Source: a virus
Strand: one strand, 5' to 3'
IMG/VR virus record: IMGVR_UViG_3300010403_000024
Coordinates: 1-64,000 of that record
DNA: 64,000 nt
Below, piece after piece: positions 11,915 to 45,284 of the stretch. Under the pieces are notes generated by a model that worked only from the letters and a program-made list of their open reading frames with translations, was not told the origin of the DNA and ran no database searches. The position numbers and the translations under genes were made by a program. Every line of letters starts with the position of its first letter. The first letter of the stretch is position 1.

Positions 11915-13594
11915 ATGAAAAAGAAGATTCTTTGGGGAGCGCTCGCGCTAGTCGTGCTAACCGTCAGCCTGTGGGCGGCGGCCCCGACGTTTTTGGGCGG
12001 CAAGGCGCAGGTGACGACGCTGCATCCAACCACCAATTACATCCTGGCGATCATGGGCAACTCGACCTCGGCGGTGTACCGGCTGATCAACGACAGCAAT
12101 CTACTGCACCAGATGCTGGCGCTGCCGGAGGCGACGAATTTTACCGGGACCCTAGGCTCCAACGCCGCGCAGAATGTGGCAGTGTGGACCAACGACACGA
12201 CGCAAATCAGACCCAAGGTTGGAAGCTCCGTTGTGCCAGTTAGAATCTACGACGGCGCGGGCAGCAACGTCGTTAGATTAAATACCAACGGGCAATTGAG
12301 GCTTGGTAAGTTTGCAGAACTAATCTTCAACCCCCACGCTGATGATGCCGGAATTTACGACATCCACGCAAATTCTGAGGGGAAGAAGTGGGTGGAATGG
12401 GACGTTGCGATTTACCAAAATGATGACGGTAGCGGCGATTACGCACTAGGGAAGTTCGACTTCGATATTCAAAATCCGGGTGGTTACTTTGGACGAATAA
12501 TTACCAAAACCCGGTTTGGTTCAACCAACATCGAAACATACCTGATGTCAGATTATACACAGGGAGGTGCCGCGCTTAACCTTGTTGGAGCAAACAATAC
12601 CATCGTCTGGCAAAGCGACCCCGATCCATCTCAGCCTTTCATGTTTTACGTCCTGCAAGGCGGTGTAATGCGAATGGTGTTCACCACGAACGACTGGTCA
12701 GCCTTTTTCTCAAGCAACGTATTTGTCGGTGGAACAATCAGCGCCTCAAACGCAACCGCTAGCCGATTGGCGGCATTCGATGCTGGAAAGCGTTTAACCA
12801 ACAGCGCCTATAGCGATACGGATATTGCTGCTTTGCAAGGTGGCACCAATGGCTTGAATGGAAGCAAAATCGACAAACTGAACGGCACAGGAACGAATTT
12901 TTCCGTAGGGCATTTCACCGGCACTACGAATTGGAATTTCGTGTCTCGCGGCACCAATGGCCAACCGACCGGGTTCGGCATTGACACCAATGGTGTGACG
13001 CACCTCGGCACAAACACGGCGAGCGATACGATGTTGAGTAACGCCCCTGGAGTGTTCTCGATACAAACCAGCAACAGCGCATCATCAAAATTTTACCAAA
13101 CGACAACAGGTGTTGGAGTTGGGCAGAGTGCGCCCGCAAACATACTTCACGTGACCCCTCCAGTTGGGAACACTCAGAATGGGTACTTGCGAGTTGACGG
13201 CACCAATGGGTCTCAAGCTATCAATCTTGGTGTTTACCCAACCTCGCAGCAATTTGGCGCTGTCTATGGTGGTGTCAATGCGCCAACGGCAAATAATTAC
13301 ATGCTGCGCGGTGACGGCGGAAACCAGACCACGGTTAACGGTCCCGGCGCTTCCACGATCATAACATTCGCCATCAACGACGTTACCAAGAATCAAGTCC
13401 TTTCAACGGGTGCTTTCAGTGCTGAAACAAACTCTATCATTCTCAAGGGCACCAATTCAATCTCCGCCCCAAACGCTTCGCTTGCCTTTATGGGTGCTCA
13501 GTTATGGACGGATGGCACTAACCTTTGCATCGTTTTTCAAAACGCAGCAGGCACCAGAACCACGAACAAAGTGAGCCTAACTGCATGGCCCTAA
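11915..13594 (+). CDS. Tail-fibre-like protein with Sec signal peptide, Thr-Asn rich
   Basis: MKKKILWGALALVVLTVSLWA signal; TASRLAAFDAGKRLTNS and GVGVGQSAPANILHV fibre motifs; about 18 TN dipeptides. Confidence 0.75.
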   Translation: MKKKILWGALALVVLTVSLWAAAPTFLGGKAQVTTLHPTTNYILAIMGNSTSAVYRLINDSNLLHQMLALPEATNFTGTLGSNAAQNVAVWTNDTTQIRPKVGSSVVPVRIYDGAGSNVVRLNTNGQLRLGKFAELIFNPHADDAGIYDIHANSEGKKWVEWDVAIYQNDDGSGDYALGKFDFDIQNPGGYFGRIITKTRFGSTNIETYLMSDYTQGGAALNLVGANNTIVWQSDPDPSQPFMFYVLQGGVMRMVFTTNDWSAFFSSNVFVGGTISASNATASRLAAFDAGKRLTNSAYSDTDIAALQGGTNGLNGSKIDKLNGTGTNFSVGHFTGTTNWNFVSRGTNGQPTGFGIDTNGVTHLGTNTASDTMLSNAPGVFSIQTSNSASSKFYQTTTGVGVGQSAPANILHVTPPVGNTQNGYLRVDGTNGSQAINLGVYPTSQQFGAVYGGVNAPTANNYMLRGDGGNQTTVNGPGASTIITFAINDVTKNQVLSTGAFSAETNSIILKGTNSISAPNASLAFMGAQLWTDGTNLCIVFQNAAGTRTTNKVSLTAWP

Positions 13595-14055
13595 AACTCA
13601 TCATCGCCTCACTCCTGATTGCGCTTAACCTGAACGCGCAGATCGTTCCAGTGCTGGCCACGAATGGCCCTGCATTGCTGACGACGGCAGTGGCTACAGA
13701 CTTTCCTTCACAAACCACCACGTCATCCACCAACTGGTCTTCCGGCAAGTTCTACACCAACGATCTCTCCCACGAAATCGAAGTGGCCTGTTCGATAACG
13801 AATGTCATGGCCGCTGTCGTCGGTTTCAGTGGCATGGAATTGTGGGTAGGCTACACCACTAACAGCGCCACCTTGCTCGGTGTGGGCGCGACCACCACCA
13901 AAACACTCCTGACTGGACTGGCCACCACTCAGGAAATGCACTTGCGCGGGCGTGTGCCGGTAGGCGGCTATTTCACTTTCACAAACATCTCGTCTGGAGC
14001 AGGTAACTCAGTGACGATGCGGACCGGCTCCGGACAATACACGATTCTGCCATGA
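13585..14055 (+). CDS. Secreted Thr-Asn-rich beta protein
   Basis: MALKLIIASLLIALNLNA|Q signal; ATG 13585 overlaps fibre end; 6 TN. Confidence 0.75.
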   Translation: MALKLIIASLLIALNLNAQIVPVLATNGPALLTTAVATDFPSQTTTSSTNWSSGKFYTNDLSHEIEVACSITNVMAAVVGFSGMELWVGYTTNSATLLGVGATTTKTLLTGLATTQEMHLRGRVPVGGYFTFTNISSGAGNSVTMRTGSGQYTILP

Positions 14056-14717
14056 AGTTCTTAATCATTTTCCTAACCGTGCTCTCGTGCTTCGGGGCAC
14101 AGCAACCGCCTGCGACGTGGCAACTCTACAAGTGGGCGCTGAACGGTAATGGCGACTACACACCAGTAAGCGCACCGGGCAGCGGTGGTGACGTGGCAAC
14201 CTTTGCCTTCGGAGCATCGACGAAGCCTTACGCCGCGTTCCTTACCACCATCGTTGATACCAACCTGCTTGGCGATCTCACGGGCAAGCAACTCACTGCA
14301 ACCGTCAGTGTCTCTGGCAGCGCCACATTCGTTTACGGCGGACAATTCTCATGGAACTCCAACAGCACCGTTCCTGCCAACACGCGCCTTTATTTCTCGA
14401 CCAGCGCCGCTACCTACGACATCGACATTGCCAACACCAACTCAACCGCTTTTTGGTGGAGCCATTACGGAGTGTGCGTCATCACCAACGGCGCAGGCGG
14501 AATAATTGCGGACACGTTTACCCCATCGCATTGGTCCGACGCAAACGGGCATCCCGGCGACGATCCTGGCTACATCGACGCTTTCAATGCGGCAGTGGCC
14601 AATGTTCAACAGATCGGCGTGAGTTTTGGTGGCGGAAGTTTTTTCGATTGCGGAGTAGCCCTATGGCCGCACACTGGATCGGCATCGTTCCACTTGGTTT
14701 CATTTACGGCGAACTAA
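14052..14717 (+). CDS. Secreted carbohydrate-binding-like beta-sandwich protein
   Basis: MKFLIIFLTVLSCFGA|Q signal; IGVSFGGGSFF motif. Confidence 0.7.
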   Translation: MKFLIIFLTVLSCFGAQQPPATWQLYKWALNGNGDYTPVSAPGSGGDVATFAFGASTKPYAAFLTTIVDTNLLGDLTGKQLTATVSVSGSATFVYGGQFSWNSNSTVPANTRLYFSTSAATYDIDIANTNSTAFWWSHYGVCVITNGAGGIIADTFTPSHWSDANGHPGDDPGYIDAFNAAVANVQQIGVSFGGGSFFDCGVALWPHTGSASFHLVSFTAN

Positions 14718-14721
14718 CATT

Positions 14722-14835
14722 ATGACCTTCTCATTCATATCTAGCTGGTTTGAATTTGGTATAGCCGTGATGATGTTAGTGCTGTTTTTGATGGTCAAGA
14801 CTTGGTTTAAATGGTGGAAAGCTGATCGCAAATGA
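14722..14835 (+). CDS. Small single-TM membrane protein (37 aa)
   Basis: MTFSFISSWFEFGIAVMMLVLFLMVKTWFKWWKADRK; ATGA-coupled to next gene. Confidence 0.5.
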   Translation: MTFSFISSWFEFGIAVMMLVLFLMVKTWFKWWKADRK

Positions 14836-15143
14836 GCACTAAACCACAACCAAACTGGGCAACCATCGGCACGGCCTTGGCGATGGTCACCATCGGCGCG
14901 GTGCAGTACTGGAACGGCCACAAACAAGACGTAGCCAACGCTCTCGCTCGCGACACGCACACGCTCGTCAATTCACAAATGGGCGCTCAGAAGAAGCTGC
15001 TCGCGGACGTTACCGCCGCCAAAGCCGCCATCACGAAGACACCCGAAGACAAACAAGCCGCAGCCGATGCTTGGAAAGATTGGCAAGACCACGTAGCAAA
15101 ACAGAACCGCGTGGACGACGAACACCGCAACAAAAAGGAATAA
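14832..15143 (+). CDS. Membrane-anchored coiled protein, lysis-cassette candidate
   Basis: N-terminal TM then THTLVNSQM. Confidence 0.6.
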   Translation: MSTKPQPNWATIGTALAMVTIGAVQYWNGHKQDVANALARDTHTLVNSQMGAQKKLLADVTAAKAAITKTPEDKQAAADAWKDWQDHVAKQNRVDDEHRNKKE

Positions 15144-15144
15144 C

Positions 15145-15294
15145 ATGAGCACTATACTTATCGGCCTCTGGTTAATTTTATTCGGCGCAATGTCATTAAT
15201 TTCAACGAAGGTGCCGGATTGGATTGTGCCACTCGCAGCCATCGCAGTTGGCCTTATCGTTCTTGTCGGGGCGTGGAGAAGGCCAAACCCTTGA
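15145..15294 (+). CDS. Small two-TM protein (49 aa), holin-like
   Basis: MSTILIGLWLILFGAMSLISTKVPDWIVPLAAIAVGLIVLVGAWRRPNP. Confidence 0.6.
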   Translation: MSTILIGLWLILFGAMSLISTKVPDWIVPLAAIAVGLIVLVGAWRRPNP

Positions 15295-15397
15295 TGCGTA
15301 ATGGAAGAACCGCACAAGGACGTGCGCAAGCGCCCGAAAAAAGACTGCGACATGATTCGTGAATGCTGGGAATGGGTGAAACTAAAGAAAGAACAGA

Positions 15398-16162
15398 ATG
15401 AACGCCGGAACCGACCTTCTCGACCAGTTAAAAACAACTCCGCACTGGATGCTGGTGCTCATCGGGTTGACCATCTTCGGGGTCTATTGGAAGCGCAGCC
15501 AGTGGCCGAACCGTTATCTGAAATTCGTCAACCTCATCCTGCCGACCATCGCCTACCCGATTCTTCATTACGGGCCTGACGCCGAGCACTCCTACTGGAA
15601 TCCCATCGCGACACTCGCCTTGCACGGCTTCGCGATCGGGATCGCCAGCGAGTTTGTGCATGAAGGGATCATCACGAAGATCAAGAACGTGTTTCCGGGG
15701 TTCAAATTCCCGGACGAACCGCCACAACCACCTGGAGCACCCCCAAGCATGAAAACCCTCCCGATCTTTCTGCTCGCCGCTTTGCTTTCCGGCTGCTCGT
15801 ACGTGCGCCCGATCGGCAGCATCGGCGACGTGACTTTCTACAAGGTGCAATCGACCAGCATCCTCGGCCCGACCGTGAACGTGCTCGTCACCCGCACCGG
15901 GTGCTGCGCGACGAACGTGCAGGTCTATGGCGCTTATGCCGGCAACGGGATGCTGCCGGCGGTGGCGGGGGCGGGCGGGATCGTGGGCGGTCTTTACCTG
16001 CTGGGGGAAGCGGCGCGGCACAACGGGAGCCAGAGCAGCCAGCAGAGCGTCCAGAACGTGCAGAATACGGTGACGACCGCGATTGAGCCGCCGACGGCAC
16101 CCCCGGCGCCGCCGATTGGCCCTAGCCGCCCGCCGGATAACCGGCCGCCGGTGCATCGTTAA
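15398..16162 (+). CDS. Holin-like three-TM domain fused in frame to a lipoprotein (internal start 15749)
   Basis: LIGLTIFGVYWKRS..PNRYL...HGFAIGIASEFVHE, then MKTLPIFLLAALLSG|C lipobox and Pro-rich tail. Confidence 0.65.
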   Translation: MNAGTDLLDQLKTTPHWMLVLIGLTIFGVYWKRSQWPNRYLKFVNLILPTIAYPILHYGPDAEHSYWNPIATLALHGFAIGIASEFVHEGIITKIKNVFPGFKFPDEPPQPPGAPPSMKTLPIFLLAALLSGCSYVRPIGSIGDVTFYKVQSTSILGPTVNVLVTRTGCCATNVQVYGAYAGNGMLPAVAGAGGIVGGLYLLGEAARHNGSQSSQQSVQNVQNTVTTAIEPPTAPPAPPIGPSRPPDNRPPVHR

Positions 16163-16225
16163 AAAGCGACTCCGCAATTTTGCTGTTGCGCACCGGCTGG
16201 TTGCGCTTAACATGCGCCCGACGAT

Positions 16226-16873
16226 ATGAAATACCTTCTACTCCTTCTTGCCATCGCAACATCACTCGCAGCGCAGGAGCCGCCCATGCCCCCGATGCCG
16301 ATGCCAGTAACACTCAATCGTTCGGTTGCTGGAAATGACTCGGTTCGAGCGGCTAAGCCCGCGCCTCGAAGCTGGACAAAACCTACACTGTTCACAGTCA
16401 ACTGTCCCGAGTGCAGCAAAACACTAAAAGGTGTTCCAGCTTTGGCTATCAAAGTTGACAATCGGCATTGGATGACCAATGGAATTCGCATCGAGCGTAC
16501 AGTGCGATTGGCTTGTCCTGATTGTCGTGAAGAGTTCGATGCTGCAAACGTGAAGTTTTTGCCAAAACCAATCGCTATTGAAGAGGGAGATCAACCGCAA
16601 GCGAGCGTGAAGAGTTTGGACGTAGTAAATCCCATGCTGCGCCTGTCGATAAAGCTAACGAACTGTATCCCACCCGGTGCTGCCGAAGGTCCTGCGGTCG
16701 AGCTGAGTTTTCAAACGGAGTTTGGGAAGCTCTACGAGTGCCAGGCCAGCGACGACAATTTTCAGTCGTGGCTTGGTTCGGTGCCCTTGGCCGGGACCGG
16801 CACCGTCTTGTCTCGGTTTGAATCACCGAGTCACACGCACCGCATGTATCGGGTGAAGGAGACGACTTTATGA
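16226..16873 (+). CDS. Secreted protein with CxxC pairs and Verrucomicrobia-type C-terminal domain
   Basis: MKYLLLLLAIATSLAA|Q; CPEC, CPDC; AVELSFQTEFGKLYECQASDD..W..GTG..RMYRV. Confidence 0.72.
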   Translation: MKYLLLLLAIATSLAAQEPPMPPMPMPVTLNRSVAGNDSVRAAKPAPRSWTKPTLFTVNCPECSKTLKGVPALAIKVDNRHWMTNGIRIERTVRLACPDCREEFDAANVKFLPKPIAIEEGDQPQASVKSLDVVNPMLRLSIKLTNCIPPGAAEGPAVELSFQTEFGKLYECQASDDNFQSWLGSVPLAGTGTVLSRFESPSHTHRMYRVKETTL

Positions 16874-17052
16874 AAACCTTTTTCTTTGCACTCTGCCTCT
16901 GCTGCACATCTTGCAGCACAACGAACATCACGAAGCTGGCCGAGCAGCTAAAGAACGACCCCGCGACAGTGGATCTCAACGTGACGACTATCTGGGGATC
17001 ATTTTATTTCCACCGCTCATTTCCGACAAATTGGGTTGCGCCTGGGAAGTAG
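16870..17052 (+). CDS. Small lipoprotein
   Basis: MKTFFFALCLCCTS|CSTTN. Confidence 0.6.
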   Translation: MKTFFFALCLCCTSCSTTNITKLAEQLKNDPATVDLNVTTIWGSFYFHRSFPTNWVAPGK

Positions 17053-17172
17053 TTTCTCCGGTAGCGACGTGGCCGGGGAGACGCGGCAATCTGCTCCCAG
17101 CGGTCTGGAAATCGCCTTAGCGGCACGCACCCACTGCAAAAGGGTCAAAGACCTCTGCCGCGCCGGTCGAAG

Positions 17173-17218
17173 CCAGAGGTCAGAGATCAGAAGTCAGAGG
17201 TCAGATATTCAGGTCAGA
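17173..17218 (+). repeat. Heptamer repeat (AGAGGTC-type) at convergent gene junction
   Basis: cagaggtcagagatcagaagtcagaggtcaga. Confidence 0.8.
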
Positions 17219-17537
17219 CCTTTAAGAGCCGGCGGTACATCTTGCGCTGTTCGCGGTTGGAGTTCTTCACATGCGACCAGACACCCTTTTTTAAGAACTG
17301 CACATGGCGGCGCAGGTGGAAGAAATCGACCCCGCAACCGCGGGCAAAGGCGTCGATGGTCTCGATCTTCACGCCAGCCCAGGTGCGGCGCACGGAGAGG
17401 CTGCTGACGGTCGCGAGCGACAACCCGGAGCGGGCGGCGATCTGGCGGGCGGAGAGGCCGCGGCGCCCATGCGACTGGCGCGCGACCAGCCGGCAGAGGT
17501 GCGGCGGGAACCGATCCAAGAACTGGAGCAAAGTCAT
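17214..17537 (-). CDS. XRE-like helix-turn-helix protein
   Basis: LSARQIAARSGLSLATVSSLS; coupled to terminase. Confidence 0.75.
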   Translation of the reverse strand: MTLLQFLDRFPPHLCRLVARQSHGRRGLSARQIAARSGLSLATVSSLSVRRTWAGVKIETIDAFARGCGVDFFHLRRHVQFLKKGVWSHVKNSNREQRKMYRRLLKV

Positions 17538-19120
17538 ACCGAAATGATCCCGGATTCTTCCACGTCGGGCTGCGGGCGGGCGGTGGGCTTGAACGCCTCT
17601 TCGAGCATCTCGGCCTGCATCTCCTTAAAGATCGGGTAGGAAAGGGCGTCGAAGACGTGGAGGTCCTCGCTTTTGACGATGTAGTGGTTGTTCGATTGGG
17701 AGAGGTTCTCCAGCATCTTGCGGACCTTGACGCATTTGGCGGAGATGAACAGCCGCTCCTCCTGCAGCAGGATCGAGATCATGCGGACGCGGGTGCGGCG
17801 GCTGTGCGCGGGTTTATGGACCCCTTCGAGCGAGATCGTGCCCCCGGAGGCTTTGGAGATTTCGAGGTAGTCGTAGGGGTTGTCGCTGTTCGGGCGGAAG
17901 ACGTTGAGGGCCGAGTCGTCGGCGTAATGGTCCCACTCGAACTTCTTGCCCGCATGCTTCTCGATGGTCAGGATCGATTGCATGACCCATTCGGTGAAGA
18001 CATCGAGTTTGACGCATTCGTCGTGGGACATGCCGGTGCCGATGTGAACGATCTCGTCCAGAACCGTCCAGCAGCTAATCTCCTTGCCCGCGACCAGCCG
18101 CAGCCATTTATCGAGCAGGATGACGGCGTGGTTGACGCCCCCGATGTCCCATCCGGATTTGAGCTTGGTGGTGGTCGGGGCAACCTGGGCCTGATCCTCT
18201 TCGCCGTCGTTTCCACCGACCAGGTGTTTCGAAGGGCTGAACAAGTGGCGGAAATGGAACTTGGTCTCGAAGCCGCCGACGCCCCAGATGCCGTCGTAAT
18301 AGGCTTCTTTGAGGGCCCGGTCGCCGCGGCAGGTGGCGAAGAGCCGCACCTGCTGCTGGCGGGTCATGTGTGGGTTATCGCGCCAATGCATGTGGATGAC
18401 GCGCATCTGCTTGTAGAGCTCGGACATCATGGCGCGCTCGTCGTCGGTCTCCTCCGGGATCGGGGGTTTGTTGCGCTCGACGTAAAAGACCTGATAGATC
18501 CAACTGTTGCGCCCCATCACCTCGTCGGGGTTGGTATCGGCGATCCATTCGATGAAATTTTCGGCGTATTTCTCCATGCCAGGCATGCGCAGGCTGTTGA
18601 TCGTGATCGGGAGCAGCTTGCGCTCTTTCCACATCGAAAGCTCGACGAAGTACATGCCGGAGAAGTTTTTATTTTTGACCTTCTCCTCGATCTCGTTCTC
18701 GTTATTGATCGAGAAGAGCCAGACCCGGGAGCGGCCCCCGTACCAGTTGCGGACATCGCAGTAGGCGGTGCGGGTGTTGGCATCGACCTTGGGGCCGGGG
18801 TTGCCCTCGGCCGTCTTGCTGACGATGGCGAAGCGGCTCTTGCCGTCGCGCCCGACCAGGTTGGCGTCGATCCATTGGGGCAGGATATGCTCGATCAGCA
18901 TCTGCCAGGAGCCGCCGTCTTTGGCGAGCTTGACCGATTTGGCGAAGATGCCGTATTGGGCGGCGGGAGTCATCCAGAGGTGCTTGGCGATGCGGTGGAG
19001 GATGGAATAGGTCTTCCCGCTCCAGCGGCTGCCGTCCACAAGAATGATCTGCTCACGACAGTTAAACACGTCCCATTGCTTAGAGAAAAGTGAGGGTAGC
19101 CATTGGGGATGGTCGGACAT
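17534..19120 (-). CDS. terL: Terminase large subunit
   Basis: LFSKQWDVF Q-motif, GSRWSGKT Walker A, MYFVE Walker B, DTNP, DNPH, GWDIG nuclease, HVFDALSY. Confidence 0.9.
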   Translation of the reverse strand: MSDHPQWLPSLFSKQWDVFNCREQIILVDGSRWSGKTYSILHRIAKHLWMTPAAQYGIFAKSVKLAKDGGSWQMLIEHILPQWIDANLVGRDGKSRFAIVSKTAEGNPGPKVDANTRTAYCDVRNWYGGRSRVWLFSINNENEIEEKVKNKNFSGMYFVELSMWKERKLLPITINSLRMPGMEKYAENFIEWIADTNPDEVMGRNSWIYQVFYVERNKPPIPEETDDERAMMSELYKQMRVIHMHWRDNPHMTRQQQVRLFATCRGDRALKEAYYDGIWGVGGFETKFHFRHLFSPSKHLVGGNDGEEDQAQVAPTTTKLKSGWDIGGVNHAVILLDKWLRLVAGKEISCWTVLDEIVHIGTGMSHDECVKLDVFTEWVMQSILTIEKHAGKKFEWDHYADDSALNVFRPNSDNPYDYLEISKASGGTISLEGVHKPAHSRRTRVRMISILLQEERLFISAKCVKVRKMLENLSQSNNHYIVKSEDLHVFDALSYPIFKEMQAEMLEEAFKPTARPQPDVEESGIISV

Positions 19121-19131
19121 GGCAGGACGGG

Positions 19132-23529: not shown

Positions 23530-23532
23530 GCC

Positions 23533-26853: not shown

Positions 26854-28734
26854 ATGGCAGCACCAGTCACCTCGGTCTCAAATACGGTCCCGATCACCAA
26901 CCGGGCCTTAAACATCTCCGACCATTTTGCCGCGCAATGCAGCGTGGTGGTCGATAGCGATTACGATACGTGCGGGACGATCACCCGCGCCAGCATCGCC
27001 TACCTGACCAAGAACCAGCTGGACGCGATCTTCAGTCCGGGCGGGCTGTTCGCCGACCTCGATGCGTGGTTCAAGCATTCGATTGAGATGCGCGCCTGCG
27101 GCGTGCAGCGCTTCGCCCTCTACGACTGGATCATGGCCAACGCTGACCGCCGAAATTTCCGGGCCGCGCTTTACCCCGGCGTGAAGGCGATGAAGGGGCC
27201 GACGATCCTGCAGCCGTTCATCATGGGGCGGCAGATGTCGATCATCAACCGCGACCATTGGCAGATCACGTCTGGCGGCAACATGACGGCGCCGACCGGG
27301 GCTTCGCTGGGCGGCGGCACCCTGCAGAGCCGGTTTACCGACAGCAGCGGCAACGCCCTGGACGCGACCAAATACGTGCGGGTCGAGAGCCGGTACGGGA
27401 CGCCGGTCAATCAGGCGTTCTTCCGCCCGATGGATACCGTGCATATCTTCAACACCGCGAGCGGGGTGCTGCAGCATGGGGCCTGGCGCGTGATCGATTC
27501 AATCCACGATTCGACCCAGCAGTATTGTTACGTGGCCCTGCAGAGTTTGAACGCGGGCTCGACCGAGCAGTATGACGCTTCACCCGGCCAGGCGCTGGCG
27601 GCCTACATGGTGCCGGGCTTGAACAACGTGCAGGACTGGGAAACGTGGTGCAATAACCGTCCAACCCTCGACGGCCGCAAGATGGTGCCCTTCTGGCGCC
27701 AGACCGATCGCTGGACCCGCTGCGTCGATTCGGAATATCTGATCGTCTATTCGCGCCTGATGGAGGCCAATGCGGCCTTCCGCGAATTCGGCGACCTGCC
27801 GCTGGCCGAGCGCAACAAGCAGGACGAGATGGAGCGCCAGAAGCGGTTTGTGAACGACTTCTTCTACAACAAGCCGTTGGCGAACCAGGATCTGGTGAAC
27901 TGGCAGAGTCTGGAAAAGATTTACTCCGTCGATGGCGCCGGCCTGAGCCTGGGCATCGGCAGCAAGCAGGTCGCTTACCGCGCCAACTTTATTGGGGTGC
28001 GCGAGCAGCTCCGCATCTGCGCGCAGGTCTATGACTTGGTGAATCATCCGCTGGAATTCTACGAGTTCCTCGACCTGAACTATTCGATCATGCGGGCGCG
28101 CAACACCTTTTACGGGCGCCAGATCACGGACATCGACTGGTACACGAGCAACCAGTTTGCGGCGCTGCTCTCCCAGGCGTATTCGACCTACATCAATCAG
28201 GTCTGGCCGGGGCTGAACCCGCAGATCCTGGTGGGCGACCAGTTGACCGGGTTGACCAAGCTGGGCCAGCCGTACCTGCGCTTCCGGGTGCATTATCCCA
28301 GCGGCGTGAACATCAACATCATCTCCGACTTTTACTTCGACGACCGGCTGGACCAGTTCCAGAACCAGATCTTTGCCGGGGAATCAAGCGCGGGCATCAA
28401 CCAGGAATGGGCGGGCAACCTGCTCTGGTGCCTCGACATCGGCAAGCCGGGCGCGGGCAGCATCTACTGGGCGCAGGTGGCATCCAACCGGCGCACGACC
28501 TCGACGGCGAGCCTGAACGAACTGGCCAAGCTGGACTCGACCTTCCGCTGCACCATGAACGTGATCAGCATCGAGCAGACGCTGAACAGCAACGAAGGAA
28601 CGGCGGTGGTCGAATGCCCGCTGGGTAACGCCATGCTGGAGGGGATTAGTCTGGTCACGCCGACGACACGCGGACGGGCGAAGACGATTGGGGGAACCGG
28701 GTCCAGTGGCCAATACTCTGATCTTTACAGCTAA
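26854..28734 (+). CDS. Major capsid protein (putative, large)
   Basis: After scaffold, followed by strong terminator, GC-rich third codon positions; positional call. Confidence 0.68.
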   Translation: MAAPVTSVSNTVPITNRALNISDHFAAQCSVVVDSDYDTCGTITRASIAYLTKNQLDAIFSPGGLFADLDAWFKHSIEMRACGVQRFALYDWIMANADRRNFRAALYPGVKAMKGPTILQPFIMGRQMSIINRDHWQITSGGNMTAPTGASLGGGTLQSRFTDSSGNALDATKYVRVESRYGTPVNQAFFRPMDTVHIFNTASGVLQHGAWRVIDSIHDSTQQYCYVALQSLNAGSTEQYDASPGQALAAYMVPGLNNVQDWETWCNNRPTLDGRKMVPFWRQTDRWTRCVDSEYLIVYSRLMEANAAFREFGDLPLAERNKQDEMERQKRFVNDFFYNKPLANQDLVNWQSLEKIYSVDGAGLSLGIGSKQVAYRANFIGVREQLRICAQVYDLVNHPLEFYEFLDLNYSIMRARNTFYGRQITDIDWYTSNQFAALLSQAYSTYINQVWPGLNPQILVGDQLTGLTKLGQPYLRFRVHYPSGVNINIISDFYFDDRLDQFQNQIFAGESSAGINQEWAGNLLWCLDIGKPGAGSIYWAQVASNRRTTSTASLNELAKLDSTFRCTMNVISIEQTLNSNEGTAVVECPLGNAMLEGISLVTPTTRGRAKTIGGTGSSGQYSDLYS

Positions 28735-31330: not shown

Positions 31331-31348
31331 CCGAACTATCATCGTGAT

Positions 31349-32074
31349 ATGAAAATCTGGATCTTCAGCTTTTGCCGGAATGAGGAGCGGATGCTGCCGT
31401 GGTACCTGCGCCACTACGAGCGGTTTGCCGAGCGCATTTTGGTGTGGGACGATCATAGTTGGGACGGGAGCTTTGAGATTTTGAAACACCACCCGAAGGT
31501 GACGGTCTATCCCTGGCCCTACGACAGCGGGTTGAACGACGAGATGATGAACCGCTTCGCGATGGCGACCGCGCCGGGGTTGACTCAGCACAACAAATGC
31601 GACTGGTGGATGTGGGTGGACATTGACGAGTTCATTTATCACCCACAGATGGAAGACGCGCTGGACATGGGCGGTTACTACGACGCGATAATTCCGATTG
31701 GCTATAACATGATGAGCGCGAATGGGTTGCCGGTCGATGACGGGAAGAGCCAACTGACGGATCTCCTCAGAACTGGAGTGGCGGCACCAGTCTATAGCAA
31801 GCCGGTGATCGTGCGACAGGGACGGCAGGTTTACTGGGATCGTGGGCGGCACCATTTCGAGAACTGTCCGCTGACGGTGAACCCGTATACCGGGATCAAA
31901 CTCCTGCACTACCGCTACCTTGGCGCCGACTACACCCGGGTACGCAACGCCCGCAACTACGCGGCGGTCGGACCGGACAAGCAGGCGGCTTGGAGTTGCG
32001 CGCCGGATTACAAGGGCGAGGGCTCGCCGGAGTGGGTGCTGGCGGCGCAGAAGGGGGCGTTTGAGGTGATATGA
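31349..32074 (+). CDS. Glycosyltransferase family 2
   Basis: RNEERMLPWYLRHY, VWDDHSWDGS, WVDIDEF, GRHH, LLHY. Confidence 0.88.
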   Translation: MKIWIFSFCRNEERMLPWYLRHYERFAERILVWDDHSWDGSFEILKHHPKVTVYPWPYDSGLNDEMMNRFAMATAPGLTQHNKCDWWMWVDIDEFIYHPQMEDALDMGGYYDAIIPIGYNMMSANGLPVDDGKSQLTDLLRTGVAAPVYSKPVIVRQGRQVYWDRGRHHFENCPLTVNPYTGIKLLHYRYLGADYTRVRNARNYAAVGPDKQAAWSCAPDYKGEGSPEWVLAAQKGAFEVI

Positions 32075-32298: not shown

Positions 32299-32513
32299 AC
32301 CTCGAACCCGCTGAAAACTTTGCTACTTTCCTCGCGCCTGTTTGCGCAATGGACTTGGAGCAAATTGAAGAGTTTGTTCGGCAGATCCAAGCCAATGCGC
32401 TTAGATTTTCTGCTACTTTCGTATTGGCAAGCCCTGATGATTGCTGCTGCACATCTGACGCTTTGGACAAGATGGCCAACCAACTCCACCCACTGCCTGA
32501 AAAATCAGCATGA
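32295..32513 (+). CDS. Hypothetical protein, paralog B
   Basis: RQIQANALR...MANQLHP. Confidence 0.6.
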   Translation: MNLEPAENFATFLAPVCAMDLEQIEEFVRQIQANALRFSATFVLASPDDCCCTSDALDKMANQLHPLPEKSA

Positions 32514-33816: not shown

Positions 33817-33821
33817 ATTTT

Positions 33822-34622: not shown

Positions 34623-34623
34623 C

Positions 34624-34806
34624 ATGAGATTCATCAAACCTGAGCCGATAAAAATCAACTGGCCAAGGCTACGCGCCTTTCGGAAAACCACCCAAGCGAC
34701 CCTAAACATGATCCGCCTGACCCAGGCTAAGCCGACCAAGAAACGGCTTCGTAGAATCCGCTACTGGCATCGGCAAATGCTGCACTGTGCGCGGCGGGAA
34801 GTTTAA
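34624..34806 (+). CDS. Small basic hypothetical protein
   Basis: Fills gap in operon. Confidence 0.45.
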   Translation: MRFIKPEPIKINWPRLRAFRKTTQATLNMIRLTQAKPTKKRLRRIRYWHRQMLHCARREV

Positions 34807-34810
34807 AACT

Positions 34811-35038
34811 ATGAGCGAGACTACCGACAAGAAACCGGAGAGCAACGAACAGTTGCTCAACCGCGCCTATCAACAAACCGAGCGGGCCTACGCGATCGTG
34901 AACAAGGCGACTTCGCGCCGGCAGTTCAAGGGGCCGGAGATTTGGGAGTTTCTGGGCTACCTGCGCGGAGCGACGGCGGCGGCGCAGGAGATGGAGAACC
35001 GGAGCCGGGGGAACGCGCCGGCTCAAGTTGGAGATTAA
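34811..35038 (+). CDS. Hypothetical protein
   Basis: In operon. Confidence 0.6.
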   Translation: MSETTDKKPESNEQLLNRAYQQTERAYAIVNKATSRRQFKGPEIWEFLGYLRGATAAAQEMENRSRGNAPAQVGD

Positions 35039-35062
35039 CAGAAGCAAACGAAGGGAACGAAG
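35036..35062 (+). repeat. ACAGAAG-(GTAACGAAG)2-type repeat at gene junction
   Basis: Related copies at 37751-37780 and 49196-49224. Confidence 0.7.
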
Positions 35063-35266
35063 ATGGAACAATACCAACTACGGGTGGTGGCCGAGGAAAT
35101 GGAACTGAGCGAGCGGCTGGAGCGGCTGCGGGCCTTCATCGAGGATGCGAAATTTCGCAACTTACCATTCGCGGAGCAGGAACGGATGGGCAAGCAGCTG
35201 CGCGCGATGGACACCTACCAGGAGGCACTGCGCGAGCGGATTGCGGCTTGGGGGGAGACAAAGTGA
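35063..35266 (+). CDS. crAss001_48-like coiled-coil protein
   Basis: YQLRVVAE..EL.ERLERL..FI...Q..AM..Y...L.ERI. Confidence 0.78.
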   Translation: MEQYQLRVVAEEMELSERLERLRAFIEDAKFRNLPFAEQERMGKQLRAMDTYQEALRERIAAWGETK

Positions 35267-35436
35267 GGCGCGTTGCCGGCATCTTTCTGATCGCGCTGCC
35301 ATTCGTCGTGATTGGCATCACCCTTTATCTACAAGGGGAACTCTGGGGCTTCGCTAAAATGATCCTGATCCTGGCGGCCTCCCTAGCACCGATCTTCCTT
35401 GGGATGAGCCTTCTGTGCGGAAAGGGCAAGGATTGA
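35263..35436 (+). CDS. Small two-TM membrane protein
   Basis: Two hydrophobic segments; coupled. Confidence 0.55.
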   Translation: MRRVAGIFLIALPFVVIGITLYLQGELWGFAKMILILAASLAPIFLGMSLLCGKGKD

Positions 35437-36332
35437 ACTTAGGCAGCCTCTTGTACCTGCCCGGCTTGTCGGTCACGCCTGAGCGGACGGCGGCGTGCCT
35501 GGCCAACCTGGCAAGATGGAAGCACAAATACCCGATCTACATCTACAGCGAGCGGGAGTGGCATCCGAGCTTGTGGCGGATGATCGGCGGGATCGAGTTC
35601 AGCCAGTGCGAGAACCCGGAGGTGGTGCGGAGCGAGACAGTGCATCATGTGCCCAAGCTGGCCTACCTGATGGGAGTGCAGATCGCGGCTAATGCTGGAC
35701 TGGAGTTGTTCCTGACGTTGGAGACGGATTCGAGGGTCTGGGGCGATAACTGGGATGAAGCGATCTTCGACGAGTTTTTGGCGCAGCAGGAGTCGGCCCA
35801 GACCGAGATGGTGCTGGGCGGGACCATGTTTGTGTGGCATCCATTCAACGACGGGTTGGATTATGCGCTGGAGTTCGGGACGTTTGTGGAAAAGTTTATC
35901 GCCCGGCGCGGGTCAGGCGTGGAAAACGGGGCTATCAAGGTGCCAAACATGTTCATTTATGGAGGCAGAGGGTCTTGTTCGACGCATCATGTGTGCGCCT
36001 ACCCCAACGGAGCGGGGAGCGTGGCCCGGACCAGTTTCGTGCAGCGGGTGTTTGGTCCGCGCGCGATCAAGCTGGCAGCGCAGGAAGGGAGTGCGTGGGA
36101 CGCCCACTTGGGCTATGGATTGTTTGAGAGCTACGGGCCGCAGGGCTACCGTCGGCTGGCGCCGCTCAATACGGTGTTTAGCGTATATGGTGATCTGTTA
36201 ACGAGTGAAGGAATGCGGATCGGGTTGCTGACTTCAGGGCAGTGTCGGTTAGCACATCAGATCAAGAGCGACTGGAGTGGTGCCGGCTTGGAATTAAACC
36301 GCAGAGACGCAGGGGACGCAGAGAAGACATGA
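35433..36332 (+). CDS. Putative GT-A glycosyltransferase-like protein
   Basis: FLTLETD, PNG, AWD pattern; TTG start. Confidence 0.55.
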   Translation: MNLGSLLYLPGLSVTPERTAACLANLARWKHKYPIYIYSEREWHPSLWRMIGGIEFSQCENPEVVRSETVHHVPKLAYLMGVQIAANAGLELFLTLETDSRVWGDNWDEAIFDEFLAQQESAQTEMVLGGTMFVWHPFNDGLDYALEFGTFVEKFIARRGSGVENGAIKVPNMFIYGGRGSCSTHHVCAYPNGAGSVARTSFVQRVFGPRAIKLAAQEGSAWDAHLGYGLFESYGPQGYRRLAPLNTVFSVYGDLLTSEGMRIGLLTSGQCRLAHQIKSDWSGAGLELNRRDAGDAEKT

Positions 36333-36685
36333 AACCGGAAGCACAGCGGATCGCGATTGCTGAAGCGCAGGGGAAGAAGCCTGTCTTAATGAACGCAGGT
36401 CTGCGAGCGACTTGGATGGAACTGACAAATGAGGATTTAGGCGAATGGTGCGAGATTCCCAATTACCCGAACGACAAGAACGTGATGCTGGAAACGACCT
36501 GGAGCCTGCGCAGCAAGCCGGAGACGGTAAAGCAGTTTATGAAAATCTTGCACTTGATCTTGCGGAAGGAGCGCGGTTTGTCTTATGTCGATTGGCATCT
36601 CTTAGACTACGCGCTGCTGCATGCCAGCGCCGCGCAGTTGGCCGAGGCGTATCTGAAAACGATTGGAAAGTGGGTGGAAGAATGA
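36329..36685 (+). CDS. Hypothetical phage protein
   Basis: RIAIAEAQG...PNYPND...HASAAQLAEAYLKTIGKW. Confidence 0.7.
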   Translation: MKPEAQRIAIAEAQGKKPVLMNAGLRATWMELTNEDLGEWCEIPNYPNDKNVMLETTWSLRSKPETVKQFMKILHLILRKERGLSYVDWHLLDYALLHASAAQLAEAYLKTIGKWVEE

Positions 36686-36978
36686 AAAAAATATTACTGT
36701 TGTGTGTCTTACTGACCCTCGCGGGCTGCTGCCTGCTGCCGAAGGACAAGCCGGTGCCGGTCGAGCAGATTGGTGACCCGGAGGCCAAAACCAGTGCGGC
36801 CGTCTGGACCGTTGCGGTTGGAGATCCAGCCTCGCCGATCTGGAGCAGGAGCAACTGCTTCCCGCCGGTTGAGCACGAACAAGGCTGCTGGCTGGTGCGC
36901 TGGCTGGAGAATGGGCAGACCAATGAGTTCCACGCATGGTCTGTGCCGGTTAGCTTTTGGCGAGTTTATACAAAGTGA
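36682..36978 (+). CDS. Lipoprotein
   Basis: MKKILLLCVLLTLAG|C lipobox. Confidence 0.7.
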   Translation: MKKILLLCVLLTLAGCCLLPKDKPVPVEQIGDPEAKTSAAVWTVAVGDPASPIWSRSNCFPPVEHEQGCWLVRWLENGQTNEFHAWSVPVSFWRVYTK

Positions 36979-37126
36979 GCGAGCCACTGCAAATCCATCC
37001 AATCCCCGGACCTTCACCAGAGGTAAAAACCGTCTTTGAAGCGATGGGGAAAATACTGGACGTGATGGAGAGGTTGCTGCTTCTGCCTGAGCCGCCAACC
37101 AACCCCGACGAACAATCCTTTGCGGA

Positions 37127-37795
37127 ATGAAACCCAGGAAGAAAAAGAGCAGCAAACTTAACTTCAACCTGGCCAAGCACGACGAGGCGGTGCAGGGCCG
37201 GCGGGAGCTGGAGGACCGGGTGGCGGCGGGCGAGATCCTGCAAAAGCTGGGTCTGGCCTGGGAGCAGATGAAGCGCCGGCTGCTGCATAAGCGCAAGCCG
37301 ACGGTCAACGACCTAAACAAGTTCGTGGCCGAGATGGAGACGACGGTGCGGCGCGAGTGCGTGGGCAAGAATTTGGACGGGTTTCGCCAGTTTGCTTTGA
37401 CGCTGCTCCGGGAGAAGGCGGAGCTGCTGCGCTTGAGCGGCTTCAACCAGCACAATGTGTTTACCCCGGCCAGCGTGGTCGAGCCAGCGGCCTCGCCCGA
37501 ACTTCCGAGCGCCTATCAGCCGGTGCAGGTGCGCTACACCTTCAACCGCTTCGAGGAGTTTGCCAGCCTGGAGCCAGTGCGCCGGGTGATGAAGAAGGAC
37601 GGATTTGTCGGCTTCATCCTGGAGGAGAACCAGGTGATCGGGGTGTTCACCGACGGGCAGTATGTGCTGATGGGCAGCGTGGTGAACGGACTGGGGATGG
37701 AGAAAGTGCCAAGCAAGGAGCAGTATCTGGCGGCGCTCGGGAAGGGGAATATCACAGAAGGTAACAAAGGTAACGAAGGTGAGCGCGAAATTTGA
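37127..37795 (+). CDS. Hypothetical protein
   Basis: Protein-like ORF. Confidence 0.7.
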   Translation: MKPRKKKSSKLNFNLAKHDEAVQGRRELEDRVAAGEILQKLGLAWEQMKRRLLHKRKPTVNDLNKFVAEMETTVRRECVGKNLDGFRQFALTLLREKAELLRLSGFNQHNVFTPASVVEPAASPELPSAYQPVQVRYTFNRFEEFASLEPVRRVMKKDGFVGFILEENQVIGVFTDGQYVLMGSVVNGLGMEKVPSKEQYLAALGKGNITEGNKGNEGEREI

Positions 37796-38491: not shown

Positions 38492-38521
38492 GGGCCACGG
38501 CTCTGTGTATTGGTTGCCGAT

Positions 38522-38953: not shown

Positions 38954-39189
38954 TCAACCGCCGTTCATTTTTCAAGTCACTCGCCCGAACTGCGGCGATC
39001 ATTGCGCTGGCACCACAGATCGCGTTCAGGGTGCCAAAGCTAACTTTTGAAGTTTTTCCCCAAGGTAAGTCACTGGTTTCTCAGGTTTTTGATTTTCAAG
39101 AATGGGTGGCTTTAAACTCAGCTATCGTGAAGGCCAGAGGTAAGGCGTTATATTCAGAGTGTCGCGGTAAAGTTCTGACGAGCCAATGA
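38950..39189 (+). CDS. Small protein with twin-arginine-like N-terminus
   Basis: MINRRSFFKSLARTAAIIALAPQ; lower GC. Confidence 0.55.
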   Translation: MINRRSFFKSLARTAAIIALAPQIAFRVPKLTFEVFPQGKSLVSQVFDFQEWVALNSAIVKARGKALYSECRGKVLTSQ

Positions 39190-40886
39190 TCTCCTACGGC
39201 GACTTCATTACCGGCATACGGCGCACAATGTGGCCGCATCCGGGCGAGGCGTCGTCGCTGGTGACGTCGCACTCCCAGATGTTTCTGGAGGCGATGATCG
39301 ACCTGTGCAAGTGGATACCGTGTCTGCAAACCCACCATACGGACGTGCATCCGGCTTGCTCGACCTACGTGCAGTGCGGGTTGACGGTGTTTGCCGCGCC
39401 CTACGGGGAGATCGAACGGGTCTATACGCTTTCGAATGGCGACTGGTGCAACAAGGTTTCCTACCTGCCGGCCAACTACAACCGAGTGCAATGCTGGAGT
39501 GATCGACTGTTGAAATCCCCGGTCTTCACCTCGCCGGCCAACACAGGACTGCCGGCCTTGCAGCAGGGGTTGAAGTATGCGGAGAAATCGACCGACTCGG
39601 TTTATGGCCGATCGCGCAGCGGAATCTATGCGGTGCATCGGCGGCGGCTCTACATCGCCCCGTGGGTGCAGAGCAACGAAAGCGTGGTGGTCGAGTGGGA
39701 AGGGGTCAAGACCGACTGGCGGGCCGAGGACCTGCTGGACGAGACCTACTGGACGCCGGATGTGGGCAGTGCGATCAAATCTTACGTGCAGTGGCAGCAC
39801 GCCAAGGATCACACCGAGACCGCGGCGCTGGAGGTGCGGACCCTGCGCCAGGATTATGAGGACGCGCGCGCCGACCTGATCTACTGGTGCCAGCAGCGCA
39901 CGAAGGAAAACGAAGCGCAGGAGGCGGCCGCGATCTGCACCGAGCGCACCTGTGACGACGGCAACCTGCCGAGCCGCACCCAACTGGAGGCGGAGGCGGT
40001 GGGCGAGGAAGCGGGTCCGGAGATCTTTGCCGTGATCGGCGACTACGGGGCGGACAACGAAGCCGAGCAGGATGTGGCGGACCTGATCAAGGGCTGGGAC
40101 CCCAGCTATATCGTGACCAACGGCGACAACTGGTATGACGGCACGGCGGCCGAGGACTTGGACGCGGCGGTGGGCAAATATTTCTCGGACTTTCTTTTTC
40201 CTTATACCGGCGACTTTGGGGCCGGGGCGGCCACGCAGCGGTTTTTTCCCGCGCTGGGAGCGAATGACTTTGACCCATCCGGCAAGCTGGCGCTGGTGCT
40301 GGCCTACTTCGCGCTCTCGGCCAACTACTACACCTTTACCCAAGGGGCGGTGCAGTTCTTTGTCTTGAACAGCGGATTCGACCTGAGCCAGGTGAATCAG
40401 GAAGCGGACGGCAACACCCTGGACTCGACGCAGGGCAACTGGCTGCAGGCGCAACTGGCCCTGAGTGTCGCGCCCTTCAAGATCGTGATCGTGCATCATC
40501 CGCCCTTCACCTCGGCGGCGACCTCGCTCTCGACTGACCCGCTGGCGGGCGACGGCACGCTGAGCTATCCGGACTTGCAATGGCCGTTTAAGGATTGGGG
40601 GGCGGACGTGGTGATCAGCGGGCGGGCCCATGTCTATGAGCGGCTGACCGGCAACGGCACCATCGGCGAGGACGGAATGATCTACATCGTGAACGGCCTG
40701 GGAGGGCAGCCTGCCGACGCGCCGGAGGAGCCGGGGACGTTTGCCGAGGAGCCGCTGGCGATCTCGGAGAAGCGCTACGCCGATGACTTCGGGGCCTTGC
40801 GCGGGACAATCGATTGCCAGACGTTGACGCTGGAGTTTTTTAATCGGGACGGGACGCTGATCGACAGCGTTAGCATCACCAAATGA
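39186..40886 (+). CDS. Head-tail adaptor-like domain fused to degenerate metallophosphoesterase
   Basis: N-half virion-like (LYIAP, YV.W); C-half GDYG, GDNWY, GAND, HHPP, SGRAHVYER, YIVNGLGG. Confidence 0.75.
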   Translation: MISYGDFITGIRRTMWPHPGEASSLVTSHSQMFLEAMIDLCKWIPCLQTHHTDVHPACSTYVQCGLTVFAAPYGEIERVYTLSNGDWCNKVSYLPANYNRVQCWSDRLLKSPVFTSPANTGLPALQQGLKYAEKSTDSVYGRSRSGIYAVHRRRLYIAPWVQSNESVVVEWEGVKTDWRAEDLLDETYWTPDVGSAIKSYVQWQHAKDHTETAALEVRTLRQDYEDARADLIYWCQQRTKENEAQEAAAICTERTCDDGNLPSRTQLEAEAVGEEAGPEIFAVIGDYGADNEAEQDVADLIKGWDPSYIVTNGDNWYDGTAAEDLDAAVGKYFSDFLFPYTGDFGAGAATQRFFPALGANDFDPSGKLALVLAYFALSANYYTFTQGAVQFFVLNSGFDLSQVNQEADGNTLDSTQGNWLQAQLALSVAPFKIVIVHHPPFTSAATSLSTDPLAGDGTLSYPDLQWPFKDWGADVVISGRAHVYERLTGNGTIGEDGMIYIVNGLGGQPADAPEEPGTFAEEPLAISEKRYADDFGALRGTIDCQTLTLEFFNRDGTLIDSVSITK

Positions 40887-43655: not shown

Positions 43656-43672
43656 ACGGAGTATTTGAAGCT

Positions 43673-43972: not shown

Positions 43973-43978
43973 GAATTT

Positions 43979-44461
43979 ATGAAGACACTTTTGGGAATCA
44001 TCGGAATCATCTGCGGGTTGCTGCTTGGGGCCTCGCTCTTTGGGGCGGCCCCATTGCAGCGCAATTACTGGACGACCAACGCGGTGCCGGTCGGCGAGCT
44101 GCGGACCAACCCGGCCTCGACGTTGACGGCGGTCTCCTGCTCATTCGACACCAACGGTCCAAGGTACTGGTTCTGGACGAACATGGTGACGAACGTGACG
44201 GTGAACCTGACCAACACCTGGAGCGCGACTCGGACCAACCGGACGCTGGACTTCTTCTTTACCGGCGCGACCAACAACGGACCGAACTACACCGTGACCT
44301 TCCAGACGCTGAACCCCGCCGGGGTCGTTTATCGCTGGGGGATATTTTCTCTCACCAACGGCGCGACCAGTTTCAGCGTGACCAACAATGGAGGGGCTGG
44401 GGCGAGCCTTACGCTTTGGAACACGAATCTGGTTGAGGGGTATTTTTCGCCGACGCACTAA
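43979..44461 (+). CDS. Secreted Thr-Asn-rich protein
   Basis: MKTLLGIIGIICGLLLGASLFGA signal; 11 of 18 Asn preceded by Thr. Confidence 0.8.
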   Translation: MKTLLGIIGIICGLLLGASLFGAAPLQRNYWTTNAVPVGELRTNPASTLTAVSCSFDTNGPRYWFWTNMVTNVTVNLTNTWSATRTNRTLDFFFTGATNNGPNYTVTFQTLNPAGVVYRWGIFSLTNGATSFSVTNNGGAGASLTLWNTNLVEGYFSPTH

Positions 44462-44474
44462 GGATTTTTGAGTT

Positions 44475-45284
44475 TTGAATTTGGATTTGCGATTTTGGAA
44501 AGGAGCGGCTGCTTGCGCAGCCTTTCTGGCTTTTGCCCTGATCGCTAGCGCGGATCGGCGCGGGCAACTTTCGCAGCAACGACCGGCATCGGGTTGGGTG
44601 GACCCGTCGGGATCGAACACGCTCTATGCGTGGTGGGTGTCGAGCGACTTTGCGGTGAACCTGTCGGTCAACAACACCAACCCGTGGATCGACCGGGTGC
44701 AGGGGCGGCTGCTCAGAAATGGTAACAGCACCACCAGCGCAACCAATGCCGCCCTTGGCATTTACACAGCAGACGCCAGTGGTGGCCTTACCAACGCCCC
44801 AACAGCCCAAGGCTCCAATTCAACTTACTGCATTATCTTTCGTCCGTTAAATCTCTCCAGTGGAGACAACACATTCAACACCTGCCTAAGCGGCCCTTAC
44901 TCTTTAGGTGACGGAACACAAGGCAGCACTCCCGGCTCCTTTGCAATCAGAAGATCGACGCGCGTTATTTACTGGGGGACTTTCAACATTAGCGGCCAAG
45001 CCATCTCGTCGCCTTTGGCAAACGACACCACTTACGATTTAATTAGCGTTCAGACCAACAGCACCATGGTAGTTTATACCAATGGCACCCAATCTGCGTC
45101 CATAACAGCGATGCCGCCATTAACGGGTTGGCCCTGGTTTTGGGTGGGACATGATACAGACAGTGCGGCCAACCATTTTGACGGTTATATTAAGGAAGTG
45201 CTGATCTGGAGCAACAGTTTCTCGTCGGTGCAGTTGTCGAATGTTCATTTTTACGCTACCAACCAATACTCCTTTGCTCCCTAA
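44475..45284 (+). CDS. Secreted LamG/concanavalin-A-like lectin with DRRGQL peptide
   Basis: ASA|DRRGQLSQQRP; LYAWW, VYTNG, FDGYIKEVLIW. Confidence 0.8.
   Translation: MNLDLRFWKGAAACAAFLAFALIASADRRGQLSQQRPASGWVDPSGSNTLYAWWVSSDFAVNLSVNNTNPWIDRVQGRLLRNGNSTTSATNAALGIYTADASGGLTNAPTAQGSNSTYCIIFRPLNLSSGDNTFNTCLSGPYSLGDGTQGSTPGSFAIRRSTRVIYWGTFNISGQAISSPLANDTTYDLISVQTNSTMVVYTNGTQSASITAMPPLTGWPWFWVGHDTDSAANHFDGYIKEVLIWSNSFSSVQLSNVHFYATNQYSFAP

Follow-up and report, generated by a model that had tools for sequence, protein, structure and literature searches.

Order-specific Thr-Asn enrichment in predicted exported fibre, tailspike and lectin modules of uncultured tailed phages

Why should four predicted exported proteins of a phage place asparagine directly after threonine about three times as often as their composition predicts? 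The question is raised by the virus record IMGVR_UViG_3300010403_000024 of IMG/VR, a linear record of 77,439 bp with about 60% G+C and a CheckV completeness of 75%, whose first 64 kb form the stretch of DNA analysed here (the window). The proteins concerned, which we call A, B, C and D, lie in two clusters between positions 11,915 and 45,284 of the window (Table 1). A first-pass annotation of the same DNA had counted the Thr-Asn (TN) pairs in these proteins by hand and read them as glycosylation sequons, selected for modification of the proteins in the host periplasm. Selection on TN is supported by our analysis: the enrichment is specific to the order of the two residues (TN and not NT) and follows predicted export in this and in other phages.

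Expected numbers of pairs were obtained by shuffling the residues of each protein. TN occurs 18 times in A (5.7 expected; p<0.001), six times in B (1.4 expected; p=0.001), 11 times in C (2.9 expected; p<0.001), where it takes up 11 of the 18 asparagines, and six times in D (2.0 expected; p=0.004), so that the earlier hand counts are reproduced exactly. The inverse pair, NT, occurs 4, 0, 2 and 4 times, respectively, or 10 times against 12.6 expected for the four proteins together, which is at or below expectation and no enrichment. In the pooled mature parts TN reaches 41 against 12.7 expected (observed/expected ratio, O/E, 3.2) and is the sole outlier among all X-N and T-X pairs; the O/E of SN is 1.2. 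Composition suffices to explain the “many” SN and N-x-S/T sites that had been listed along with TN: SN occurs 11 times against 9.1 expected, and N-x-S/T 27 times against 20.9 (p=0.08).

A–D are rich in both Thr and Asn, and the region from 12 to 16 kb is lower in G+C; an artefact of composition, chance, a DNA-level motif, repeat amplification or mutagenesis of the diversity-generating retroelement type would have to be suspected on these grounds. Such an origin is refuted: each of four unrelated proteins exceeds its own shuffled expectation at p≤0.004, with NT not enriched; the sequence ACNAAY occurs 41 times in frame in the four genes, 2 and 4 times in the two other frames and 0–1 times on the antisense strand; the codons at TN sites match the overall usage of the A–D genes; no tandem repeats were found in A–D, no paralogy was detectable among them, and no reverse transcriptase was found; and the excess is repeated in 49 homologues and in other phages. 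Given the shuffling p-values, the restriction to the reading frame and the lack of tandem repeats and paralogy, we conclude that the TN excess is real and lies at the protein level.

Within the window the excess goes with predicted export. A–D all pass the heuristic by which we called signal peptides, each having a basic N-terminus followed by a hydrophobic core free of charges and a small-x-small site, and the conserved mature modules of their homologues start directly after the predicted cleavage site; the hydrophobic cores, at 19–22 residues, could alternatively be signal anchors. No window protein that lacks a predicted signal peptide shows TN enrichment, those rich in Thr and Asn included: this holds for the 626-aa protein that had been taken for a capsid and the 508-aa protein that had been taken for an FN3 fibre, in both of which our recount agrees with the single TN estimated before, for a 548-aa protein (Table 1), and for a 2564-aa protein (TN 3 against 3.7 expected). 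A Gln stands right after many of the predicted cleavage sites (..A-Q.., with cleavage between the two), both in homologues (P0019, P0022, P0032, P0033, P0040 and P0049) and in protein B and the 221-aa and 215-aa exported proteins of the window. This pattern is reminiscent of the signal-cleavage “Q-rule” of Bacteroidota, here in a probable Verrucomicrobiota setting.

The same bias is found in the 49 metagenomic homologues, with TN at 556 against 184 expected, NT at 123 against 184 and SN at 180 against 131; once signal peptides and the conserved C-terminal module are taken out, TN still stands at 645 against 220. The N- and C-terminal modules of A recur, as ..YLGGK..VT.LHPTTNY.. and ..LW.DGTNLCVV.QN..GTRTTNK....AWP, in about 40 metagenomic proteins of widely differing length (residues 1–110 are matched by P0010, P0028, P0039, P0044 and P0026 in HMMER). 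The C-terminal module of about 35 residues is always protein-terminal, ends in ..(S/T)AWP, and contains invariant DGTN and TTNK as well as a nearly invariant single Cys; beyond protein A, it lies at 8001–8165 of locus L002, at 8001–8153 of locus L003 and in loci L015–L029. In 15 further metagenome loci every complete gene for a protein ending in ...AWP starts with a signal peptide; genes that seem to lack one are truncated at a contig end or were called with too long a start. The family is apparently absent from species-representative bacterial genomes in two scans, the only match being a weak one in Clostridia with NT above TN. For protein C, nine homologues were found in which the TN positions are mostly invariant: conservation is 0.89 for Asn after Thr, compared to 0.49 for other Asn, 0.70 for Trp and 0.72 for Gly, and TN pairs are retained at 0.78 compared to 0.34 for other pairs. 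The TN pairs are thus the best-conserved feature of the C family.

Three complete phage genomes with terminal repeats (G001, 56.6 kb; G002, 31.5 kb; G003, 45 kb) carry the same kinds of cassette as the window and have almost no other genes in common with it or with each other. In each of the four genomes, predicted signal-peptide proteins have a TN O/E of 2.8–3.0 and all other proteins one of 0.8–1.2; pooled, the counts are 202 against 68.5 expected for the former and 126 against 130 for the latter. NT stays at about 1 throughout, and hence the comparison of TN with NT in secreted and cytoplasmic sets, which had been proposed as a check on the first reading, leaves only the TN of predicted exported proteins in excess among the phage proteins. 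The class to which A–D belong is known only from metagenomes, where it forms cassettes of otherwise unrelated soil and freshwater tailed phages, which probably infect Verrucomicrobiota.

A–D appear to be related to modules of phage fibres, tailspikes and lectins and are predicted to be exported by Sec, and the presence of export signals on modules of this type is unusual in itself. Protein A has no match in Pfam, PHROG, NCBIfam or PDB. The AlphaFold2 (AF2) model of its residues 299–559 is poor (predicted local distance difference test, pLDDT, 51) and is confident only in the three-stranded C-terminal module (pLDDT 63–84); its neighbours in a protein structure atlas are phage tail-fibre clusters, a weak match (template modelling score, TM, ≤0.39) and no more than a lead to a tail fibre. 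In the model of protein C, residues ~39–160 superimpose on phage gp10/XD structures with Z-scores of 9.2–10.9 and root-mean-square deviations of 2.5–3.1 over 98–103 residues at 9–13% identity. The matches comprise the KP1 baseplate protein (9F4A, Z 10.9), CBA120 TSP4 (7REJ, 9.7) and the Pa223 capsid spike (9NY6, 9.2), and the Solidus tailspike follows with 8.0; phage proteins score 10.9, 9.7, 9.4, 9.2 and 8.0, and the next match, an unrelated chaperone–substrate complex (6O38), scores 6.7, with lower values thereafter. Foldseek gave an E-value of 5.6e-5. In BFVD 177 matches reach E≤0.001, most of which are fibre or baseplate proteins of phages. A sequence search of the PDB found no match for the C family, which leaves the gp10/XD assignment without sequence-level support. 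We take the domain of C, as modelled, to be of the phage tailspike/baseplate gp10-XD type; the known proteins of this type (CBA120 TSP4, KP1, Pa223) resemble C in fold but, unlike C, carry no signal peptide and are assembled in the cytoplasm.

Protein D matches Laminin_G_3 (PF13385) with 31.5 bits against a cut-off of 27.6, or 34.4 bits in a six-frame search. Directly after the predicted signal peptide, the motif ADRRGQL(S/M)QQ(R/H)P is identical in the LamG paralogues (window 44550–44585 and 58151–58186; locus L001 6804–6839), which elsewhere are just 23–27% identical; the motif might serve as a tag for docking or sorting. G003 encodes a 1699-aa signal-peptide fibre (32538–37637, corresponding to 12538–17637 of locus L011) in which YadA-head repeats occur together with long shafts rich in TN and with a GH27-like alpha-galactosidase part that includes Melibiase_C; it would be an exported depolymerase-type tailspike.

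How, then, does TN relate to these folds? The pair has a recurrent context, [V/L/A]-T-N-[G/L/A], in which the residue at N+2 is hydrophobic and Pro, Glu and Asp are avoided at N+1; the second-best residue preceding Asn is Ser. The T4 long tail fibres gp34–37 have 19 TN against 19.4 expected, and the cytoplasmic fibres of the TN-carrying phages show no bias either. In the G003 fibre, the alpha-galactosidase-like and Melibiase_C part contains 11 TN against 3.1 expected, and a solved GH27 enzyme (3A5V) has KD, GD, KM, KQ and SN at five of six aligned TN positions. The orthologue of D in G001 retains two of the six TN of D, and the exported paralogue none. As T4 and cytoplasmic fibres are unbiased, as TN lies inside an enzyme part, and as D and its orthologue share only two of six sites, a cap tied to a single fold is disfavoured, and TN appears to have been superimposed on several folds, in proteins destined for export from the cytoplasm.

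We tentatively propose that a factor in the host envelope reads [VLA]-T-N-[GLA] in exported proteins. TN would be a selected two-residue motif, laid over several different folds in this class; after Sec export it would be recognised in the envelope by a factor of the host, not encoded by these phages. An enzyme that modifies Thr or Asn is the most likely such factor, and among enzymes a glycosyltransferase comes first; a periplasmic folding or sorting factor is less likely. The phage proteins would thereby follow a rule of the host's own secreted proteins. It is possible, if somewhat doubtful, that TN is more precisely the acceptor motif of an undescribed general modification system (probably glycosylation) that works in the envelope of Verrucomicrobiota and of certain further lineages, and that phages export fibre- and tailspike-type proteins via Sec to have them modified; in that case the proteins might be added to virions only when the cell lyses, or might have their role at the cell surface.

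TN is none of the described bacterial sequons, and a literature search found neither a described T-N sequon nor a verrucomicrobial glycoproteome. General O-glycosylation in Bacteroidota uses the motif D-(S/T)-(A/I/L/V/M/T), of which A–D contain four copies against 3.8 expected. That system resembles TN as read here in that a short lineage-specific motif on proteins that cross the inner membrane is modified by a host envelope enzyme and would be imposed on exported phage proteins; it differs in that here no Asp precedes Thr, Asn rather than a methyl-bearing residue follows it, and the glycan is only presumed (for the O-glycoproteome of P. gingivalis see PMC8729774, in excerpt). In the anammox planctomycete Kuenenia, O-glycans are attached to the S-layer protein at a G-(T/S) motif (bioRxiv 10.1101/2020.12.03.409086); there too the motif has two residues and lies on a surface protein, in the PVC superphylum that includes the probable host phylum, but the partner of Thr is the preceding Gly there and the following Asn here. 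GT is not enriched in our proteins (O/E 1.13), and the enrichment of GTN (3.08) does not go beyond that of TN overall (2.93). PglB-type N-glycosylation, with the sequon D/E-x-N-x-S/T in Campylobacter and a relaxed N-x-S/T in other bacterial oligosaccharyltransferases (PMC4894442, in excerpt), is closest to the first-pass reading, as it modifies Asn of exported proteins in the periplasm; in contrast, its sequon has no match in A–D, and no multi-spanning STT3/PglB-like protein was found in the phages. Moreover, x-S/T follows the Asn of TN less often (0.159) than it follows other Asn (0.211) or occurs in the background (0.213), and neither N-x-S/T nor SN is enriched, so that TN as a sequon of the known N-linked kind was not borne out.

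Several observations weigh against a factor that reads TN in the envelope. The signal peptides were called by a home-made hydrophobicity and cleavage-site heuristic rather than by SignalP. The LamG paralogue of D is predicted to be exported and yet has no TN; therefore export alone does not bring TN, nor does the fold or export need it. The converse is seen in P0046, a 699-aa homologue of A residues 387–519 whose N-terminus resembles SGNH/GDSL esterases and whose open reading frame, as called, lacks a signal peptide; it has 16 TN against 5.1 expected and is the one clear exception to the rule that TN goes with export. The earlier claim that the enrichment is confined to exported proteins is correct for the window, in that no protein lacking a predicted signal peptide is enriched; P0046 and the TN-free exported paralogue qualify it. 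An enzyme is also missing from the phages: none of the proteins of the four genomes has at least three membrane segments, so no PglB-, PglL- or PMT-like enzyme is present, and a search for the GT1 and GT2 Pfam families found no match in the complete genomes of G002 and G003. As the glycosyltransferase of the window has, in addition, no homologue in G001–G003, any modification would be the host's work.

The main rival is a strand-capping structural motif, in which Thr ends a β-strand and Asn starts the turn (an ST-turn combined with an Asx-turn); this cap style would have spread in one gene pool of β-rich surface proteins that fold outside the cytoplasm, and nothing would read TN. In the AF2 model of C, each of the eight TN within the folded domain is found at the end of a strand or in a turn, T149-N150 being a two-residue hairpin turn. 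Two TN hardly ever stand 2, 3 or 5 residues apart (0, 1 and 6 cases, where about 25 would be expected), and spacings of 8–11 are in excess, as for one cap per strand. These two results also belong to the evidence against an envelope factor: conservation above that of Trp and Gly, a position at the ends of strands and in turns, a hydrophobic N+2 and the avoidance of certain spacings fit a purely structural role equally well, Asn after Thr being conserved like a structural Gly, and the context hydrophobic-T-N-G/A/L and the second rank of Ser before Asn point the same way. On the other hand, β-rich cytoplasmic proteins of the same phages that are rich in Thr and Asn show no TN bias, nor do the T4 fibres; TN occurs in unrelated folds whose relatives have other residues at these positions; and one invariant TN of the C-terminal module of A is modelled in mid-strand. 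A threefold dipeptide bias that has a structural origin and is independent of the fold is not known to have been described. We regard the structural account as a possible explanation about which we have real doubts.

Two other accounts accept the selection on TN and place its cause elsewhere. Arrays of Thr hydroxyls and Asn amides might bind polysaccharide, TN being selected for receptor binding and not for modification: Thr and Asn are common in carbohydrate-binding sites, and the gp10/XD fold of C, the LamG domain of D and the YadA_head and alpha-galactosidase parts of the G003 fibre would suit such a role. However, TN is spread evenly along whole proteins, shafts, attachment modules and enzyme core included, with no concentration at tips, and strict order and adjacency are unexpected for a binding surface; we consider this unlikely. 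Modification might instead precede export, phage glycosyltransferases acting in the cytoplasm as HMW1C does on the HMW1 adhesin. The window has genes for a GT2-like enzyme, a methyltransferase and two radical-SAM enzymes, none of them with a signal peptide, and in G001, which also has GT2 genes, a GT4 gene lies two genes upstream of the TN-rich fibre. The HMW1C/NGT system, which N-glycosylates exported adhesins at N-x-S/T in the cytoplasm (as cited within PMC12645811, in excerpt), likewise places many sites along a large exported fibre-like adhesin; it differs from the present case in its motif and in that the enzyme would here be a phage or host cytoplasmic one, no glycosyltransferase being common to all the phages. 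G002 and G003, both complete and with no match to the GT1 or GT2 families searched, have the same TN excess, and virion proteins that are cytoplasmic in the same cell and rich in Thr and Asn are not TN-rich, which makes modification before export very improbable. The reading that we prefer, albeit tentatively, remains that of an envelope factor of the host acting after Sec export.

Which host this would be is suggested by the 215-aa exported protein of the window. Because the C-terminal ~80 aa of this protein resemble the terminal domain of many secreted Verrucomicrobiota enzymes, with feature scores of 0.91–0.92, 178–183 shared features and a structural TM of 0.63–0.70, our lead is that the host probably belongs to the Verrucomicrobiota. 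All top-listed matches of the domain are from this phylum; the comparison combined language-model features with predicted structure and is a single source of evidence. A homologous domain ends a TN-rich exported protein of G001 (34707–35768). A word-based search found no longer proteins with the domain, and a plasmid search gave only a chance match. On the 100-kb plasmid of Opitutaceae TAV5, eight predicted exported proteins have two TN against 2.8 expected, a very small sample.

The surroundings of the two TN clusters add further observations (Table 1). The first cluster lies in a segment (12001–16000) with a G+C content of 0.54 and a negative GC skew, compared to about 0.60 elsewhere; the low G+C is partly due to the ACN/AAY-rich coding and may partly reflect a foreign origin of the cassette. 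Adjoining A and B, the genes at 14832–17052 resemble a lysis cassette; they encode a small membrane protein common to the window and G001, a 254-aa protein with membrane segments and an internal lipobox, and a 60-aa lipoprotein. G002 repeats the gene order, a fibre followed by small exported or lipoprotein genes. Behind the head genes, the GT2-like gene, Methyltransf_24, a radical SAM gene and a radical SAM-SPASM gene form one run (30338–36332), and a 566-aa protein with a C-terminal calcineurin-like/purple-acid phosphoesterase domain is encoded at 39186–40886. No tRNA genes were found in the window, and neither the 626-aa protein nor protein C has relatives among isolated phages. The runs that contain the window stretch are soil and rhizosphere metagenomes, with no RNA dataset among those listed.

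Table 1. Coordinates of the proteins, modules and control genes of the window discussed in the text (TN, observed against expected after shuffling)
Feature	Coordinates	Strand	Remarks
Protein A, 559 aa, modular and fibre-like, predicted to be exported	11915..13594	+	
Predicted Sec signal peptide of A	11915..11983	+	MKKK, hydrophobic core (hydrophobicity 2.5 over 12 residues), WAA
N-terminal conserved module of A	11984..12244	+	..FLGGK..VT.LHPTTNY..; common to proteins with different C-termini
C-terminal module of A	13427..13591	+	..LW.DGTNLC.V.QN..GTRTTNK....AWP at extreme C-terminus; two invariant TN pairs
Protein B, 156 aa, small predicted exported protein	13585..14055	+	No family match
221-aa predicted exported protein	14052..14717	+	TN 3 against 1.3, not significant
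215-aa predicted exported protein	16226..16873	+	TN 2 against 0.6
60-aa lipoprotein, predicted exported	16870–17052		
Terminase large subunit	17534–19120		
626-aa protein, T/N-rich, no signal peptide (control)	26854..28734	+	TN 1 against 2.7; no family match
GT2-like glycosyltransferase, no signal peptide	31349..32074	+	PF13704, 1.2e-16; inside the glycosyltransferase/methyltransferase/radical-SAM run
Protein C, 160 aa, signal peptide and nine-strand β-sandwich	43979..44461	+	AF2 pLDDT 70
Protein D, 269 aa, signal peptide, ADRRGQL.QQRP motif, LamG/ConA-like domain	44475..45284	+	
508-aa Thr-rich protein, no signal peptide (control)	47666..49192	+	TN 1 against 2.2
548-aa Asn/Thr-rich protein (44 N, 36 T), no signal peptide (control)	56397..58043	+	TN 1 against 2.9
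Exported LamG paralogue of D	58052..58867	+	TN 0 against 0.9; internal control

In conclusion, whatever the mechanism behind TN, these proteins raise the question of why tailspike and fibre modules that are normally assembled in the cytoplasm carry Sec signal peptides. If TN were purely structural, it would amount to a sharp rule for β-strand capping in one large class of surface proteins. If it is read by an envelope enzyme, it would be a new bacterial protein-modification sequon that can be found by sequence alone, and it would provide a simple marker of host lineage for uncultured phages.

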